64,000 nucleotides of DNA from a bacterium (lineage in GTDB: Bacteria > UBA8248): the NCBI GenBank assembly GCA_965203325.1, contig OZ241875.1, positions 2,336,001-2,400,000 of the forward strand, written 5' to 3'. Positions 33,130 to 37,084 of this stretch are shown one piece after another; the first letter of the stretch is position 1, and each line of letters starts with the position of its first letter. Under the pieces are notes generated by a model. The model had not been told where the DNA came from. It was given only the letters and a program-made list of their open reading frames with translations, and made no database searches. The position numbers and the translations under genes were made by a program.

Positions 33130-33269
33130 TGATTTCTTCTTTCGTCGGTTGGCAAAGGCTTTCAATAGGGGAGTGATTTCGGAACATGTTGGTTCCGTAG
33201 GGGCGCTTCGTGTAGTGCCCATTCCCTAACGAAGCCTATGGAGTATGCAGGCGGGGGAGGTGAGGCCCC

Positions 33270-33728
33270 CTACAGCGTCCCGTTGATGGCGTAGTTGAGG
33301 ATCCGCACCACCTGCTCGGGTTCCTCGGCCACGGCCATGGCGGCGGCGTCGACTTCCTTGAGGGCGTGTGTGTGGCCCGGGTCGTGCAGGGTGATGAGGG
33401 CTTTCCCCAGAGCCGCCGCGTAGCCCGCGTCGAAGGCAGCGTTCCACTGCCTGTATTTCTCCCCGAAGCGCACGACCACCACGTCCGCCTTCTCGATGAG
33501 CGTGCGCGTCCTGATGGCGTTCACGCCCGCGCCCTTGCGGTCTTTCCAGAACGGCTTTTCCTCACCGCCCAGGATGGAAACGCCGCAATCGTCGCTCGCA
33601 TCGTGGTCCGTGACGGGGGCGAGGAAGGTGATCGGCAGGCCCGCCCTCTCCGCGCCCTCGGTAATCCGCTCGCGCCAGTCGGTGTGCACTTCTCCGGATA
33701 GATAGACCGTCCAACTCGTCTGCGGCAT
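33270..33728 (-). CDS. ytoQ: YtoQ-family protein (nucleoside deoxyribosyltransferase-like fold)
   Basis: VYLSGEVHTDWR, HDASDDCG, RFGEKYRQWNAAFDAG, HALKEVD. Confidence 0.85.
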   Translation of the reverse strand: MPQTSWTVYLSGEVHTDWRERITEGAERAGLPITFLAPVTDHDASDDCGVSILGGEEKPFWKDRKGAGVNAIRTRTLIEKADVVVVRFGEKYRQWNAAFDAGYAAALGKALITLHDPGHTHALKEVDAAAMAVAEEPEQVVRILNYAINGTL

Positions 33729-33796
33729 CGAATCCTGCTCCTTATGCTTTGAGGATAAATTGCGTGAAAGATGAAAGTTTTCATATGGCGCGACGT

Positions 33797-33830
33797 GAAA
33801 AACCCCGGCCCTCGTGGACCGGGGTCTTTC
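33797..33830 (-). terminator. Rho-independent terminator between the small ORF unit and ytoQ
   Basis: Minus strand ACCCCGGTCC-acga-GGGCCGGGGT followed by a T run. Confidence 0.75.
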
Positions 33831-33902
33831 ATCGTTCGGTGACCTGGTGGGGATTCGCCTGGGCGAAGATAAACCCGTGGGAATCTCCCGAGGGCATCTC
33901 CC

Positions 33903-33941
33903 CTAGGCGCCGGTCACCTCGTCCCTACAGTGTATTTTCAT
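33903..33941 (-). CDS. Putative 12-aa small ORF MKIHCRDEVTGA preceded by an extended Shine-Dalgarno
   Basis: AGAAAGGAGGTGATCC-TAAT-ATG...TAG on the minus strand. Confidence 0.5.
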   Translation of the reverse strand: MKIHCRDEVTGA

Positions 33942-33973
33942 ATTAGGATCACCTCCTTTCTGACGTACCTGGA

Positions 33974-34002
33974 ATCATCGGGAAAGCGAGGCGAAAAGTC
34001 AA
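33974..34002 (-). promoter_or_regulatory. Sigma70-type promoter for the small transcript
   Basis: TTGACT-17 nt-GATGAT on the minus strand, 12 nt upstream of the extended SD. Confidence 0.5.
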
Positions 34003-34101
34003 GGCGCAATATGCAGGGCGGACTGACAGCACGGCGCCCTCCGTGATATACAAACCCCCGCATGGCCTGCGCCCAGGCTGAGGCGATGGCCCCACTCCCG
34101 C

Positions 34102-34194
34102 GGAGAGGTGTCCGAGAGGCCGAAGGAGTACGACTGGAAATCGTATAGGTGCCCACAAGGTGCCTCGAGGGTTCGAATCCCTCCCTCTCCGCCA
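34102..34194 (+). tRNA. tRNA-Ser (anticodon GGA)
   Basis: GGAGAGG/CCTCTCC acceptor stem, TACGA-CTGGAAA-TCGTA anticodon arm, long variable arm, GGTTCGAATCC, G discriminator plus CCA. Confidence 0.97.
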
Positions 34195-34320
34195 CCCACG
34201 AATACCGGAAGGCCGGATAGAAACCCGGGCTTGTCGCAGCCTTATATATCCATATATCCGCAACCCTGGTTCCAGATTCCGCAGCCCCTCCTTTCTCAGT
34301 CGGGTCTGACCCCGGGATCA

Positions 34321-34350
34321 TTGACAGCCGAACAAATTCCCGTCTATAAC
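34321..34350 (+). promoter_or_regulatory. Sigma70-type promoter upstream of the selenoprotein gene
   Basis: TTGACA-18 nt-TATAAC. Confidence 0.55.
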
Positions 34351-34435
34351 TGATCCATCTAAGCATACTGGAAGACCGCGGCTGAACCCCATGGCGCGGA
34401 GTGCGTGTTCCCCTTGGATTGGAGGGAGTTTGTCT

Positions 34436-36046
34436 ATGGGCGAGAACGGTCGAATCGAAATCATCAACCCCATCGCCGCCGTGGCGGATGAGGGAGGTTC
34501 CGGCGAAGGCGCCGTAGTCCAGGGCCTGGACGGGCTCCGCATCGCTTTACTTGATAACTCCATGCCCCACGCGGGCGATTTCCTGAACCACGTCGGCGAA
34601 GCCTTCGCCGAGCGGCACGACGCGAAGCTCCTCGTGCGCAAGAAGGGCTGGGCCGCGCAGGGCGCCGGCCAGGAGACGCTCGACGAGATAGCGTCCAACT
34701 GCGACGTGGCGGTGACCGGCTTCGGGGTCTGAGGGGGCTGCACGTCGTGGAGTGTCCACGACTCGGCAGAGCTTGAAAAACGCGGCGTCCCCACCGTCGT
34801 GGTGGTGGGCACCGGGTTCGAGACGGCGGCGCGCAGCTTCGCCAAGGCCTACAAATCCCCCCATCTCCGCCTTCTCCTCGTCGATGATACCGTGGCCCAC
34901 CAGGGCGGCGACGCCCTGATGCGCATGGCGAAAAACGGCGTCGATACGGTGGCCGCCGAGTGGATGAACACGGCGAACGGGGGAGAGGCCGAAGCCGTCG
35001 CCGATGACCCCATCGAGCGGGTGCTCACGATAGCGGGCGACCCCATAGGTGCGAACGGCGCGCTATTCGATCTGGGGGCGACCGACGGGATGCCCGTCAT
35101 CCCCCCCACCCTGGATATGGTGGAGCGGTTCGTGGCGGCCTCGGGCAGAAAGGGCGATGAGGTAATCGCGCGCCTCATGCCGAGGCTGGCGGATATCACC
35201 GTGGAGCGGATCGCGGCCAACGCCATCATGGCGGGCTGTACGCCCGGCGTCATGCCCATCCTCGTGACGGCGGTGCAGGCCATGGGGGCGGAGGAGTACC
35301 ACGTCAACCACGTCATCACCACGGCGCACACGCTGTTCCCCATCGTCGTGGTGAGCGGCCCCATCGCCCGGGAGGTCGGGATGAGCGACGGGCGCGACTT
35401 GAGCGCAGCGGGCTGGGGGGTGAACGCCTCGGTCGGCCGCGCGATCAAGCTCATCATGTTCAACTGCATCGGCGACCTCGAAAACCGGGGCGCCACTTGC
35501 CAGGGCCATTTCGCCAAGTATTTCGACGCCATCACCGAGAACGTCGAACAGAGCCCTTGGGAGCCGCTCCACGTGGAGAAGGGCTTCGCCGAGTCCGACA
35601 GCGTGGTGACGGTGTTCACCGCCGAACCCCTCCACATGGTGGACGACCACAGCGCGCTCACCGCGCAGGGCATCCTGGGCACCTTCGGCACGGTGGCCGC
35701 CTGCTCCGGCACGCGGCCGCAGTTCGGCCGCTGCGAGATCATGCTCATCTTCGGCCCCACCCACGCGAACAAGGTCGCGGAAGCGGGGTTCGACAAGAAG
35801 CTCGTGCGCGATTACCTCTGCGAGGTCCACCGGATTCCGGTCAACACCTATCCTCCCGAATCGCGCGAGCGCTGGAGCGACTGGAAGCAGATGCTCTACG
35901 GGGTGAACACGATGGAGAACGCGACCCTGCCCATCGTCGAGGAGAGGGAGGACATCACCATCCTGGTGCACGGCGGCGCGGGGCCGAACTCGCTCATGGC
36001 GCCCGGCGCGCTGAACCACCGATCCATAACGCGGAAGATCGGCTAG
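34436..36046 (+). CDS. Predicted selenoprotein (536 aa, Sec99): UGSC/GrdB-like UxxC domain fused to an uncharacterised 'DGxPxIPPT' domain
   Basis: GGAGGGAG RBS; in-frame TGA 34730-34732 reads GV-U-GGCTSWSVHDSAELEKRGVPTV and joins ORF 34799-36046 in the same frame; SECIS-like hairpin follows. Confidence 0.85.
34738..34769 (+). promoter_or_regulatory. Bacterial SECIS-like hairpin
   Basis: GTCGTGGA-GTG-TCCACGAC perfect stem starting 11 nt after the TGA; G-first apical loop; lower CTGC/GCAG pairing. Confidence 0.75.
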
Positions 36047-36049
36047 GCC

Positions 36050-37084
36050 ATGCCCGGGGCGCTTCTGAGCGAACTCTCGCCGGGTGCGGAGGCCGCGCTC
36101 GAAGCCGCGATGGAGAACGGGCCGGGCGACGGCCTTCCTCTCATCCCGCCGACCTGGAGAGCGGTGGACGCCATGCTCGCCTCCACCCAGGAGGGTTCCG
36201 GCCACGTTCTGGGGATGATGGCGCCCGGCATGGTGGACGTGACGGTCGGGGATGCGGCCGTCTGCGCGGTCTTGGCAGGTTGCAAGCCGGCGCACTTCCC
36301 GGTGGTCCTGGCGGCGCTCGAAGCCGTCATGGAGCCCGAGTTCAATTTCCTGGCCATCCAGGCGACCACCGAGCTCGCCTCGCCCCTGGTCATCGTCCAC
36401 GGTCCCGTCGCCGAACGGTTGGGCGTGCACTCGGGCAGCGGGTGCCTGGGGCCGGGCTTCCGGGCGAACGCCACCATCGGCCGCGCCGTCCGCCTGGCCG
36501 CCGTGCGGCTGGGGATGGCGGTGCCCGGCGAGACCGACATGGCCACCTTCGGCCACGGGGGCAAGTTCTCTGCCTGTTTCGCCGAGGCGGCCTGCGGCTG
36601 GGAGCCGCTCCACGCGACGCGGGGGTTCCGCGCGGAGCAAAGCGCGGTGACGGTGGTGGCTGCGGACGCGCCGGTGAACGTGAACGATTACGCGAGCGGA
36701 AGTGCGGAGAGCGTGCTTCGCATGATAACCGCTACGATGTCCTATCCGGGTTCCAACAACGCGCAGGGCGGCGGGGAGGTGTTGGTCGTCATCAGCCCCC
36801 AGCACCTGGGGCTCCTCGCCTCGGGCGGCATGGGCCGTGAGGACGCCCAGCGCGCGCTTTTCGAGGGTGCGCGTGTGCCGCTGACGAGTTTTTCGCCCGA
36901 GATCGCCGAGCGCGTGCGGGGCAGACGGCCGGGGCTTTTCGAGGACTCAAGCCCCGATGCCGTTCCGGTGGCGGACGGGCCGGAGAGCATTCTCATCGCC
37001 GTGGCCGGGGGGCCGGGGAGCCACACGCTTTTCTTCCCGACCTACGGCGAGACCCGGGCGGTGACGAAGGCGGTTCGGGGTTAG
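36050..37084 (+). CDS. Uncharacterised protein paralogous to the selenoprotein C-terminal domain
   Basis: DGLPLIPPT, AGCKP, GPVA, NATIGRA, WEPLH..RGF, GGPG shared with 34436-36046; starts 3 nt after its stop. Confidence 0.85.
   Translation: MPGALLSELSPGAEAALEAAMENGPGDGLPLIPPTWRAVDAMLASTQEGSGHVLGMMAPGMVDVTVGDAAVCAVLAGCKPAHFPVVLAALEAVMEPEFNFLAIQATTELASPLVIVHGPVAERLGVHSGSGCLGPGFRANATIGRAVRLAAVRLGMAVPGETDMATFGHGGKFSACFAEAACGWEPLHATRGFRAEQSAVTVVAADAPVNVNDYASGSAESVLRMITATMSYPGSNNAQGGGEVLVVISPQHLGLLASGGMGREDAQRALFEGARVPLTSFSPEIAERVRGRRPGLFEDSSPDAVPVADGPESILIAVAGGPGSHTLFFPTYGETRAVTKAVRG

Follow-up and report, generated by a model that had tools for sequence, protein, structure and literature searches.

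On balance, the segment between positions 33797 and 34002 of the stretch analysed here, read on the minus strand, appears to be an independent gene for a structured and translated small RNA (sRNA) of about 171 nt, which would capture ribosomes and be gated by its own translation. The stretch, hereafter called the window, comprises 64,000 nt of contig OZ241875.1 (positions 2,336,001 to 2,400,000; GenBank assembly GCA_965203325.1) from a bacterium of the GTDB lineage UBA8248. The parts of this reading differ in strength. The element is very probably an independent small RNA homologous to Ms_IGR-5, a family of the Rfam database (RF02471). Capture of the 30S subunit through an extended Shine-Dalgarno (SD) sequence, here called SD1, is likely by analogy with rreB, a small mRNA of alpha-proteobacteria, and there is good reason to expect that the 12-codon open reading frame (ORF) behind it is translated. 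That the opening of the RNA by the translating ribosome, and not the peptide, is its working principle is put forward more tentatively, at slightly less than an even chance. The parts of the element are the following:

33974..34002, minus strand: promoter-like site with TTGACT (34002-33997), a 17-nt spacer and GATGAT (33979-33974)
33946..33961, minus strand: SD1, AGAAAGGAGGTGATCC, complementary without mismatch (16 nt) to the entire single-stranded 3' tail of this genome's 16S rRNA
33922..33948, minus strand: P0, a probable helix between the SD1 tail UCCU (33948-33945) and GGGA (33925-33922), with four predicted pairs, enclosing the start codon
33903..33941, minus strand: short ORF, MKIHCRDEVTGA, with ATG at 33941-33939, a further 11 codons and TAG at 33905-33903
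33912..33920, minus strand: SD2, GAGGUGACC, an internal SD-like sequence in the Glu-Val-Thr codons, forming the 5' arm of P1
33918-33912 with 33844-33838, minus strand: P1, GGTGACC paired with GGTCACC, from folding and covariation
33838..33844, minus strand: 3' arm of P1, GGUCACC, which resembles the 16S tail segment GGAUCACC and covaries with SD2
33857..33908, minus strand: long hairpin P2-P4, the base of which (GCCU/AGGC) takes in the first base of the stop codon
33845..33856, minus strand: conserved unpaired strand GAAUCCCCACCA, with a consensus of about AAUCC-N3-4-CAG, just 5' of the YCACC arm
33798..33829, minus strand: terminator hairpin of 14 bp, G+C-rich, with the loop ACGA and UUUUU directly behind it, where the RNA is predicted to end

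The 16S rRNA of this very genome ends in ...CTGGATCACCTCCTTTCT, and SD1 is complementary to it at 16 of 16 positions, with the match stopping at 16 on both sides, so that the perfect complementarity claimed in the initial annotation is exact against the organism's own 16S end. The 4.39-Mb genome, taken on both strands, contains 1086 maximal exact matches of 8 nt to this 16-mer, 272 of 9 nt, 76 of 10 nt, 11 of 11 nt and five of 12 nt, none of 13-15 nt, and two of the full 16 nt, which are the antisense of the 16S gene end and SD1 of the element. Ordinary SD sequences in this genome therefore end at no more than 12 nt, and SD1 stands alone. The computed duplex of SD1 with the 16S tail amounts to -28.4 kcal/mol versus -8.7 for GGAGG, and within the folded RNA the first six 5' bases of SD1 are predicted to be mostly unpaired (0.77-1.0) and its last UCC to be paired. 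When 9 kb around the rRNA operon were compared with the element, the 16-nt match alone stood out, the next matches being 11 nt long; the element is thus not an rRNA fragment, and an origin from the operon or its internal transcribed spacer, which had been raised as a possible objection, is contradicted by the lack of similarity past the 16-mer, the bases adjoining which differ from the rRNA on both sides.

The 16S gene itself lies at G000:C1:3115719-3117270 (L027) as a single copy in the 4.39-Mb single-contig genome, with one antisense copy of its 3' end. A single copy may mean either one rRNA operon or further copies that were collapsed.

The complementarity is kept far beyond this genome. 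A set of 62 members was compiled, 25 from the phylum of the window and 37 from other phyla, with L176 dropped for having no ORF. In this set the 5' region pairs contiguously with the 16S tail, G-U pairs allowed, over 13-16 nt in 25 of 25 members of the own phylum and over 15-16 nt in all 37 of the others, that is, 13-16 bp in 62 of 62 members and 15-16 bp in 61, with the 16S tail of the window's genome used as an approximate stand-in for those of all the genomes.

The short ORF begins 4 nt past the SD1 complement, and several of its properties are held constant among relatives. Within the phylum the frame is kept despite two independent 3-nt insertions in family f4, a TTG start and a TGA stop, and all insertions and deletions inside the ORF of the aligned relatives are in frame. 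Among the 62 members the start codon is ATG in 37, TTG in 20, GTG in four and CTG in one, and an in-frame start lies 5-14 nt past GGAGGTG in 61 of them (8-9 nt in 44). The ORF has 11 codons in three members, 12 in 48, 13 in four and 14 in six, with L163 as the exception, mis-called by the script at 6 codons and probably starting at CTG. The stop codon varies (TAG 48, TGA 8, TAA 6), and it lies exactly three codons past GAGGTG in 62 of 62 members. GAGGTG of SD2 is identical in all aligned members and predicted to be fully paired; between the end of GAGGTG and the last sense codon there are 6 nt, and up to the stop there are 9 nt.

At the level of the peptide the conservation is of two kinds. 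The peptides of the window's genus (MKIHCRDEVTGA), of genus g2 (MKIDCSDEVTAV), of genus g22 (MKIHCIDEVAAD) and of family f4 (MKKSSCSDREVAEV) are alike within the phylum, following MK-x-x-C-[RS]-D-E-V-[TA]-x-x, and part of the changes are synonymous (ATA/ATT, GAC/GAT, GTC/GTT, AAA/AAG). Across phyla E-V-[A/T] alone persists, which is the translation of GAGGUGRC; the peptides read xxxxRTREVAxR in Actinomycetota and MSSNHSEVAxx in Pyrinomonadaceae records. Since the peptide is not conserved beyond the residues imposed by GAGGUGRC, a role of the peptide only is argued against. Moreover, 15 consecutive bases of the ORF and the ATG-AAA-A start are identical at every codon position in 24 genus-level sequences that are otherwise 78-100% identical, which indicates that the RNA sequence itself is constrained too.

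The 179-nt stretch containing the element folds at -78.4 kcal/mol (z = -4.15), and none of 200 shuffled sequences was as stable. In the alignment of the genus the 41 pairs of P1, P2-P4 and the terminator are paired in 94.9% of cases versus 33.8-60.7% with slid partners, and five of the 41 pairs are changed on both sides, for example GGUGACC/GGUCACC to GGUGGCC/GGCCACC. RNAalifold run with more distant members keeps P1 and the base of P2, with 13 pairs of which five are compensatory. In the cross-phylum alignment A6 of 63 sequences, 13 pairs are 94.0% paired and eight of them are changed on both sides; the covariation score of 0.344 compares with 0.163 for shuffles, none of 500 reaching it, and with at most 0.056 for slid partners. 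Among the single helices, P1 (helix 1) is 96.4% paired across the 63 sequences, and in the genus alignment the terminator (helix 3) is 96.6% paired with two pairs changed on both sides. The base helix of P2 shows changes on both sides in five of five pairs across phyla, its upper part being variable in length and sequence. The unpaired strand between the hairpin and the 3' arm of P1 keeps AAUCC and CAG/CGG from the window's phylum to Actinomycetota and to the phylum of genome G064.

The partner of GGTCACC deserves mention, as the initial annotation had suggested that this arm could alternatively pair with the SD. This does not hold as a conserved feature, the partner that covaries with it being the internal GAGGUGAC: pair 56-131 of alignment A1 is A-U in 15 sequences, G-C in six and G-U in two, while the SD stays GGUGAUCC throughout the genus. 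For P0, which lies out of register across phyla in the model-based alignment, stems were counted arm against arm instead; pairs of P0-like arms in other lineages include GUCG/CGAC, GGUCC/GGACU, AUCCGAA/UUCGGAU, UCGGGU/ACCCGG and UGAUCC/GGAUCA.

With respect to the transcript, the minus-strand promoter-like site, the 16-mer, the TAAT, the ATG, the 12-residue ORF and the long hairpin were all recovered at the coordinates at which they had been noted initially. A promoter scan of 33200-34500 returned one promoter-like site in total, with 0.5 expected, and the TTGAC of its -35 box is identical in 24 of 24 aligned relatives. The sequence conservation of the element sets in at about 33966, which is the place of a start 7 nt past the -10 box. 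The RNA is predicted from sequence to start near 33967 and to end near 33797 on the minus strand, giving a self-contained transcript of about 171 nt between a conserved promoter-like site and a conserved terminator hairpin, to be compared with about 165 nt for the rre RNAs discussed below. The consensus terminator scan did not list the minus-strand hairpin at 33829-33798, and the same palindrome was listed on the plus strand only (33810-33824); the basis of the terminator call is therefore folding together with conservation, both of which bear out the 14-bp hairpin running into a U tract that had been annotated as an intrinsic terminator. The earlier view that the element is transcribed as a small unit in its own right, has an exceptional SD and a genuine short ORF, and is made for engaging the ribosome, is supported.

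The distribution of the element points to a gene of its own as well. A DNA search with the 221-nt region recovered it from all 22 genomes of the genus, with an identity of 81-100%, which is high for an intergenic stretch, and from one other genus of the family. Model R1, a covariance model built from the genus alignment, detects one full-length copy in 43 of the 51 genomes that represent the whole phylum in the sampled set; by family and leaving out the window's genome, these are 37 of 41 in f1, 5 of 7 in f4, and none in the single genomes of f2 and f3. The conservation of SD, short ORF and structure, for which an Rfam and homolog search had been proposed as a check, is thereby confirmed across the phylum and, as described below, beyond it.

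The genes next to the element are as follows:

34102..34194, plus strand: tRNA-Ser(GGA), divergent from the element
33270..33728, minus strand: ytoQ (PF11071, E = 9.8e-66), the next gene downstream, given as context outside the element

Co-directional ytoQ starts 70 nt downstream of the element, and the scan found no promoter-like site at 33729-33797, between the terminator and the ytoQ start; ytoQ may rely on read-through or on a promoter type outside the range of the scan. In the window's genus the same-strand gene downstream of the element encodes YtoQ (PF11071); at that place g2 has uroporphyrinogen decarboxylase, g22 an amidase, f4 LexA, g17 a glyoxalase-family protein and g20 an HTH-cupin protein, which makes at least six different downstream genes across six genera or families of the phylum. 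No conserved gene neighbourhood was found in the window's phylum, in Actinomycetota or in the phyla of G062 and G064. A divergent tRNA, which is the upstream feature kept in family f1, flanks the element in 18 of the 24 loci scanned (Ser-GGA in 12, Cys-GCA in six), and the six loci without one are the five f4 loci and one at a contig start.

Two of these neighbourhoods show further details. In g22 (loci L067-L069, about 1190-1405) the element stands back to back with tRNA-Ser(GGA), the signal recognition particle RNA (RF00169, 70.3 bits) and dnaX, which constitutes a cluster of stable-RNA genes. In g2 a phage-integrase-like ORF (Phage_int_SAM_5; L053 4-735 and L055 1967-3133) lies beside the tRNA-Cys flanking the element, which suggests that an integrated element sits at that tRNA-Cys.

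Outside the phylum, a species-genome collection was scanned with the pattern GGAGGTGRTC, 20-36 nt, GAGGTGRC, which gave at least 80 loci in at least 120 stretches. The pattern did not specify a stop codon, and among the matches listed 39 of 80 have an ORF stop exactly three codons past GAGGTG, where about 4% would be expected by chance. Model R2, built from the window's phylum only, recovers 39 of the 80 matches listed at E <= 0.01, and 38 of these have that stop, out of the 39 that do; the remaining 41 matches went unrecovered. The recoveries include loci scored by RF02471 above its cut-off. According to the record titles, the matches listed are mostly from Actinomycetota, with others from Acidimicrobiia, two from Pyrinomonadaceae, one from Ignavibacteria and one from a metagenome-assembled genome (MAG) labelled Heliobacteriaceae. 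A cross-phylum model, R3, finds the element in 73 of 151 genomes of the phylum to which a Mycobacterium-titled record belongs (67 of 145 without six flagged as unpublished, namely G217, G234, G264, G298, G304 and G336), in 55 of 151 genomes of the phylum of the Ignavibacteria-titled record and in 28 of 151 genomes of the phylum of the 'Heliobacteriaceae' MAG. In these three phyla the matches are single-copy with two exceptions.

Two matches were left out as non-members or uncertain: L175, from a cyanobacterial MAG, has the stop geometry and is not recovered by R2, and L176, from Planctomycetota, scores 19.2 bits with R2 and has no ORF. Three tandem pattern matches in L125 (401-991, an Acidimicrobiales MAG), 273 nt apart and each in an open frame starting VMEVAAS..., look like a tandem coding unit unrelated to the sRNA family. 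In L238-L243, from the phylum of G064, T-rich/TTG and TAnnTTG-like boxes stand upstream in place of TTGACA/TATAAT; these boxes resemble the promoter type of Bacteroidota.

Searched at Rfam gathering thresholds, the window yields a tRNA as its sole match. The element corresponds part by part to Ms_IGR-5. In the whole 4.39-Mb genome RF02471 has one match at E <= 1, which is the element, aligned over model positions 1-184, with an E-value of 0.036, compared to 0.0074 when 211 nt are searched. Locus L067, from the same bacterial family as the window, reaches 33.9 bits (E = 1.7e-4). Of 13 loci from the pattern scan that were submitted to RF02471, ten score 48.8-176.5 bits, above the cut-off, and the remaining three score 41.8 (L123), 32.1 (L163) and 28.2 bits (L172). 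Alignment A6 takes in loci scored at 41.8-176.5 bits by RF02471, and their ORF geometry is identical to that of the window's element. Of six loci checked in the phylum to which the Ignavibacteria-titled record belongs, four score above the RF02471 cut-off, meaning that the Rfam family already reaches past its name of 'Actinobacteria sRNA'. In Bacillus subtilis and Corynebacterium glutamicum RF02471 has no match at E <= 1. The window's lineage is, judging by its sequences, a diverged branch that RF02471 misses.

The Ms_IGR-5 consensus shares GGAAGGAGGUGGUCC, the start codon, GAGGUG, the stop three codons on, GGCGAAUxCC..CAG.CACC and a terminal hairpin. The order of parts is the same in both: a 5' (G)GAAAGGAGGUGRUCC, a start, a short ORF ending in E-V-x-x-x-stop, P1 formed by GAGGUGRC with YCACC, an unpaired AAUCC...CAG strand and the terminal hairpin, in a single-copy gene with no fixed neighbours. 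The window's element differs in having Cys-Arg-Asp where the actinobacteria have Arg-Thr-Arg, and the A-U-rich start region and the classic intrinsic terminator are its own. Ms_IGR-5 was first found in Mycobacterium smegmatis and has no function assigned. Passages of published work describe its homologues as discrete expressed sRNAs in Streptomyces lividans and S. avermitilis (PMC8079986, PMC8780764), list it in M. smegmatis RNA-seq data as ncMSMEG15794c (PMC10454040), and report ribosome-protected footprints for homologues in M. abscessus and M. smegmatis (PMC4974804). A literature search, which did not cover supplementary tables, returned no paper describing the ORF geometry or the 16S-tail look-alikes for Ms_IGR-5, and the cross-phylum architecture with a fixed stop and 16S-tail look-alikes is not described in the literature searched.

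Among the systems that have been studied, the rre small mRNAs of alpha-proteobacteria come closest to the element. As far as the passages of Hahn et al. (2016, PMC5711450) used here go, rreB of Bradyrhizobium is a 165-nt small mRNA adjoining a tRNA gene; its 16S-tail complement measures 17 nt and its ORF 14 codons. It is weakly translated and co-sediments with 30S, being found mainly in the ribosomal fraction and on 30S, and removal of its start codon stabilises it. The first bases of its complement alone are predicted to be single-stranded, with the rest in a conserved hairpin. According to the same passages, RreB and RreR are conserved within their own clades and the synthetic peptides are unstructured; analogues (rreR and others) are reported in alpha-proteobacteria only, and Rfam, CC2171, Actinobacteria and Firmicutes do not appear in that text. 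Common to rreB/rreR and the window's element are a length of about 165 nt between a promoter and a terminator of their own (both ends predicted in the case of the window's element), perfect complementarity to the 16S 3' end over 16-17 nt, of which the first bases alone are predicted to be free, a short ORF (14 or 18 codons in rre), a tRNA neighbour and a context not conserved outside the family (PMC5711450). They differ in that the rre complement runs into a GTG start, whereas the window's element has a 4-nt spacer and ATG, and in that 30S binding is experimental for rreB and for the window's RNA is predicted from the computed duplex (-28.4 kcal/mol). The likeness between rreB/rreR and the element is one of architecture.

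CC2171 (RF01867), a Caulobacter sRNA family, has one match at E <= 1 in the whole genome, which again is the element, aligned over its full length. Like the latter, it has a 5' GAAAGGAGGUGAUCC, followed directly by a short ORF with ..H-C.., a hairpin domain and a terminator within about 160 nt, and it differs in the body. Alpha-proteobacterial CC2171-type loci L222-L224 have the same 5' end (GAAAGGAGGTGATCCA-GTG...) with ORFs of 19-24 codons; the arrangement of GAGGUG, three codons and stop is absent from them. Homology to CC2171 was considered and not adopted, as L222-L224 share the 5' SD, the ORF start and the terminator only, and L225 (32 bits) does not have such a 5' end. These loci may be regarded as of the same kind as the window's element. 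From the shared 5' end we infer that CC2171 comprises the Caulobacterales rre genes of Hahn et al., an equation which the passages of that paper do not state. An excerpt of a preprint reports CC2171 expression in Methylorubrum by Northern blot and describes it as an alpha-proteobacterial sRNA of no known function (bioRxiv 10.1101/2022.01.24.477521).

Another kind of RNA element that engages the 16S tail is represented by the STAB-SD 5' mRNA stabilisers of Bacillus, in which an SD-like sequence near the 5' end binds the tail. These stabilisers belong to long mRNAs and are not known to require a start codon; the window's element, unlike them, is a self-contained gene with a conserved ORF, dedicated helices and a terminator.

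On these grounds the following course of events may be proposed. The free 5' part of SD1 (AGAAAGG) would serve as a toehold for the 16S 3' tail, from which pairing would zip through GAGGUGAUCC (16 bp, about -28 kcal/mol), displace P0 and keep the 30S subunit in place above the start codon. A ribosome translating the 12 codons would then melt P1, in which SD2 is paired with the 16S-tail look-alike, together with the base of P2. With the stop codon in the A site, GAGGUG of SD2 would be 6 nt upstream of the P-site codon, and, as this spacing resembles that of initiation, where GGAGGUG lies 8 nt before the ATG, the anti-SD could re-pair at SD2. The RNA would thus have a closed state, in which internal copies of the 16S tail cover the SD elements, and a ribosome-opened state, in which the conserved 3' strand (GCGAAUCC...CAG-YCACC) is single-stranded for as long as a ribosome is on the ORF. 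The output may be a strand that acts in trans, decay that depends on ribosomes, or a read-out of 30S tails that are free or intact.

Several points weigh against this interpretation. The discrete transcript, the binding of 30S and the translation are all predicted for this organism, by sequence analysis and calculation, and the transfer of the anti-SD to SD2, once the ribosome has reached the stop, is one that we infer from the spacing, its single ground. The statistical backing of P0 is modest, the mean best stem being 5.3 within a sequence versus 4.58 for cross-combined arms. The cross-phylum alignments are model-fitted, so their scores and pair counts lean towards structure, and the loci outside the own phylum were first drawn by a pattern that contains GGAGGTGRTC and GAGGTGRC. 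RF02471 scores the element at 19.9 bits, below its gathering cut-off of 45 bits, and RF01867 scores it at 22.2 bits versus a cut-off of 75 bits, mainly over the SD and the terminator. In this genus, read-through into ytoQ may add a local cis effect, since no separate ytoQ promoter appeared in the scan. Finally, overexpression of rreB left growth unchanged, and the passages of Hahn et al. call its function 'elusive' (PMC5711450), which means that the analogy supplies binding and not a role.

Among the other explanations, a pure 30S-parking or sequestering RNA that occupies the 16S tail, acting as a sponge or protecting idle subunits, with the ORF and the 3' domain present for stability, was part of the initial annotation, and its ribosome-engaging idea is retained. 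The 16-bp duplex at -28.4 kcal/mol, the tail complementarity of 13-16 bp in 62 of 62 members (with this genome's tail as the stand-in) and the presence of rreB mainly in the ribosomal fraction and on 30S, as far as the passages in PMC5711450 describe it, all agree with such a function; it is nonetheless unlikely as a full account, because it leaves the fixed ORF length and stop, the helix of SD2 with its look-alike and the unpaired AAUCC...CAG strand unexplained. Moreover, the gene is single-copy, and for rreB the authors argue that ribosomes far outnumber the RNA, the overexpression of which had no effect on growth (same passages of PMC5711450). We hold it to be quite unlikely that the element is an ordinary very small protein gene, with a functional 12-residue peptide and a strong SD that drives or tunes its synthesis. 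The frame, start and stop are conserved, the peptides within the phylum are alike with some synonymous changes, and RreB and RreR are kept within their clades; but across phyla only E-V-[AT] remains, as the translation of the structural GAGGUGRC, the invariance of ORF bases at all codon positions in the genus fits a constraint on the RNA, and the synthetic RreB and RreR peptides are described in those passages as unstructured (PMC5711450).

The suggestion of the initial annotation that the RNA is a cis-acting leader or attenuator controlling ytoQ through the terminator is rejected, the element being kept across the phylum with a downstream gene that varies by genus. It draws on the co-directional position 70 nt upstream of ytoQ with no second promoter-like site between, and is very improbable given that the downstream genes differ between genera of the phylum and in other phyla, that the ORF has no run of regulatory codons, and that the minimum free energy and centroid folds contain no anti-terminator pairing, a systematic search for alternative folds not having been made. 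As for a chance SD-like match or a stray piece of the rRNA operon, the 16-nt identity alone speaks for it; the match ends at exactly 16 nt with flanks unlike the rRNA operon, the element is conserved across phyla with covariation, and the genome-wide counts of the 16-mer, the covariation and the rRNA-operon comparison refute this explanation, the probability of which is practically negligible.

Small mRNAs with an SD of 16-17 nt have been shown experimentally in alpha-proteobacteria only and were left without a function. One architecture, in which the complement matches the 16S tail in length, the stop codon has a strict place and the RNA itself mimics the SD:anti-SD helix, joins the GC-rich bacterium studied here, a member of a small phylum, to Actinomycetota, to the phylum of the Ignavibacteria-labelled genome and to one further phylum. 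Being single-copy, widespread and shaped around the 16S 3' tail, the RNA recommends itself as a candidate for a housekeeping function at the ribosome that has been overlooked, and its conserved geometry points to parts that can be tested, namely the length of SD1, the start codon, SD2, the tail look-alike and the position of the stop. A much wider proposal, which is speculative and doubtful as it stands, would be that the Ms_IGR-5-type RNAs, and perhaps the rre/CC2171 RNAs too, form one ancient cross-phylum class of single-copy ribosome-probing RNAs, in which SD1 pairs with the complete free 16S tail as far as its final nucleotide, two internal look-alikes (GGAY..., ...YCACC) mask the SD1 tail and a second SD, and an ORF of fixed length passes the anti-SD on from SD1 to SD2 exactly where the stop lies. 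A device of this kind could sense how many 30S subunits are free, or whether their 3' tails are intact (mature as opposed to unprocessed, trimmed or occluded), and turn this reading into a regulatory signal by way of the released conserved 3' strand or of ribosome-dependent decay.

Beyond the divergent tRNA, the region 34318-37084 of the window contains many long overlapping ORFs of 175-580 aa on both strands, five of which were tested and gave no Pfam family at E <= 0.001. Among public RNA runs, metatranscriptomes alone, as contigs of the Logan collection, match parts of the stretch, with shares of 0.04-0.11; such contigs show neither ends nor strand and may stem from carried-over DNA. Contigs of relatives that are at least 90% alike over the element include record 10 of X2 (184 nt, 33778-33954). 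Three further metatranscriptome contigs, likewise showing neither ends nor strand, are record 25 of X4 (177 nt), which matches 33773-33947, record 2 of X1 (298 nt), which matches 33660-33954 and extends into ytoQ, and record 26 of X4, which matches 33921-34065 and spans the predicted start of the RNA.

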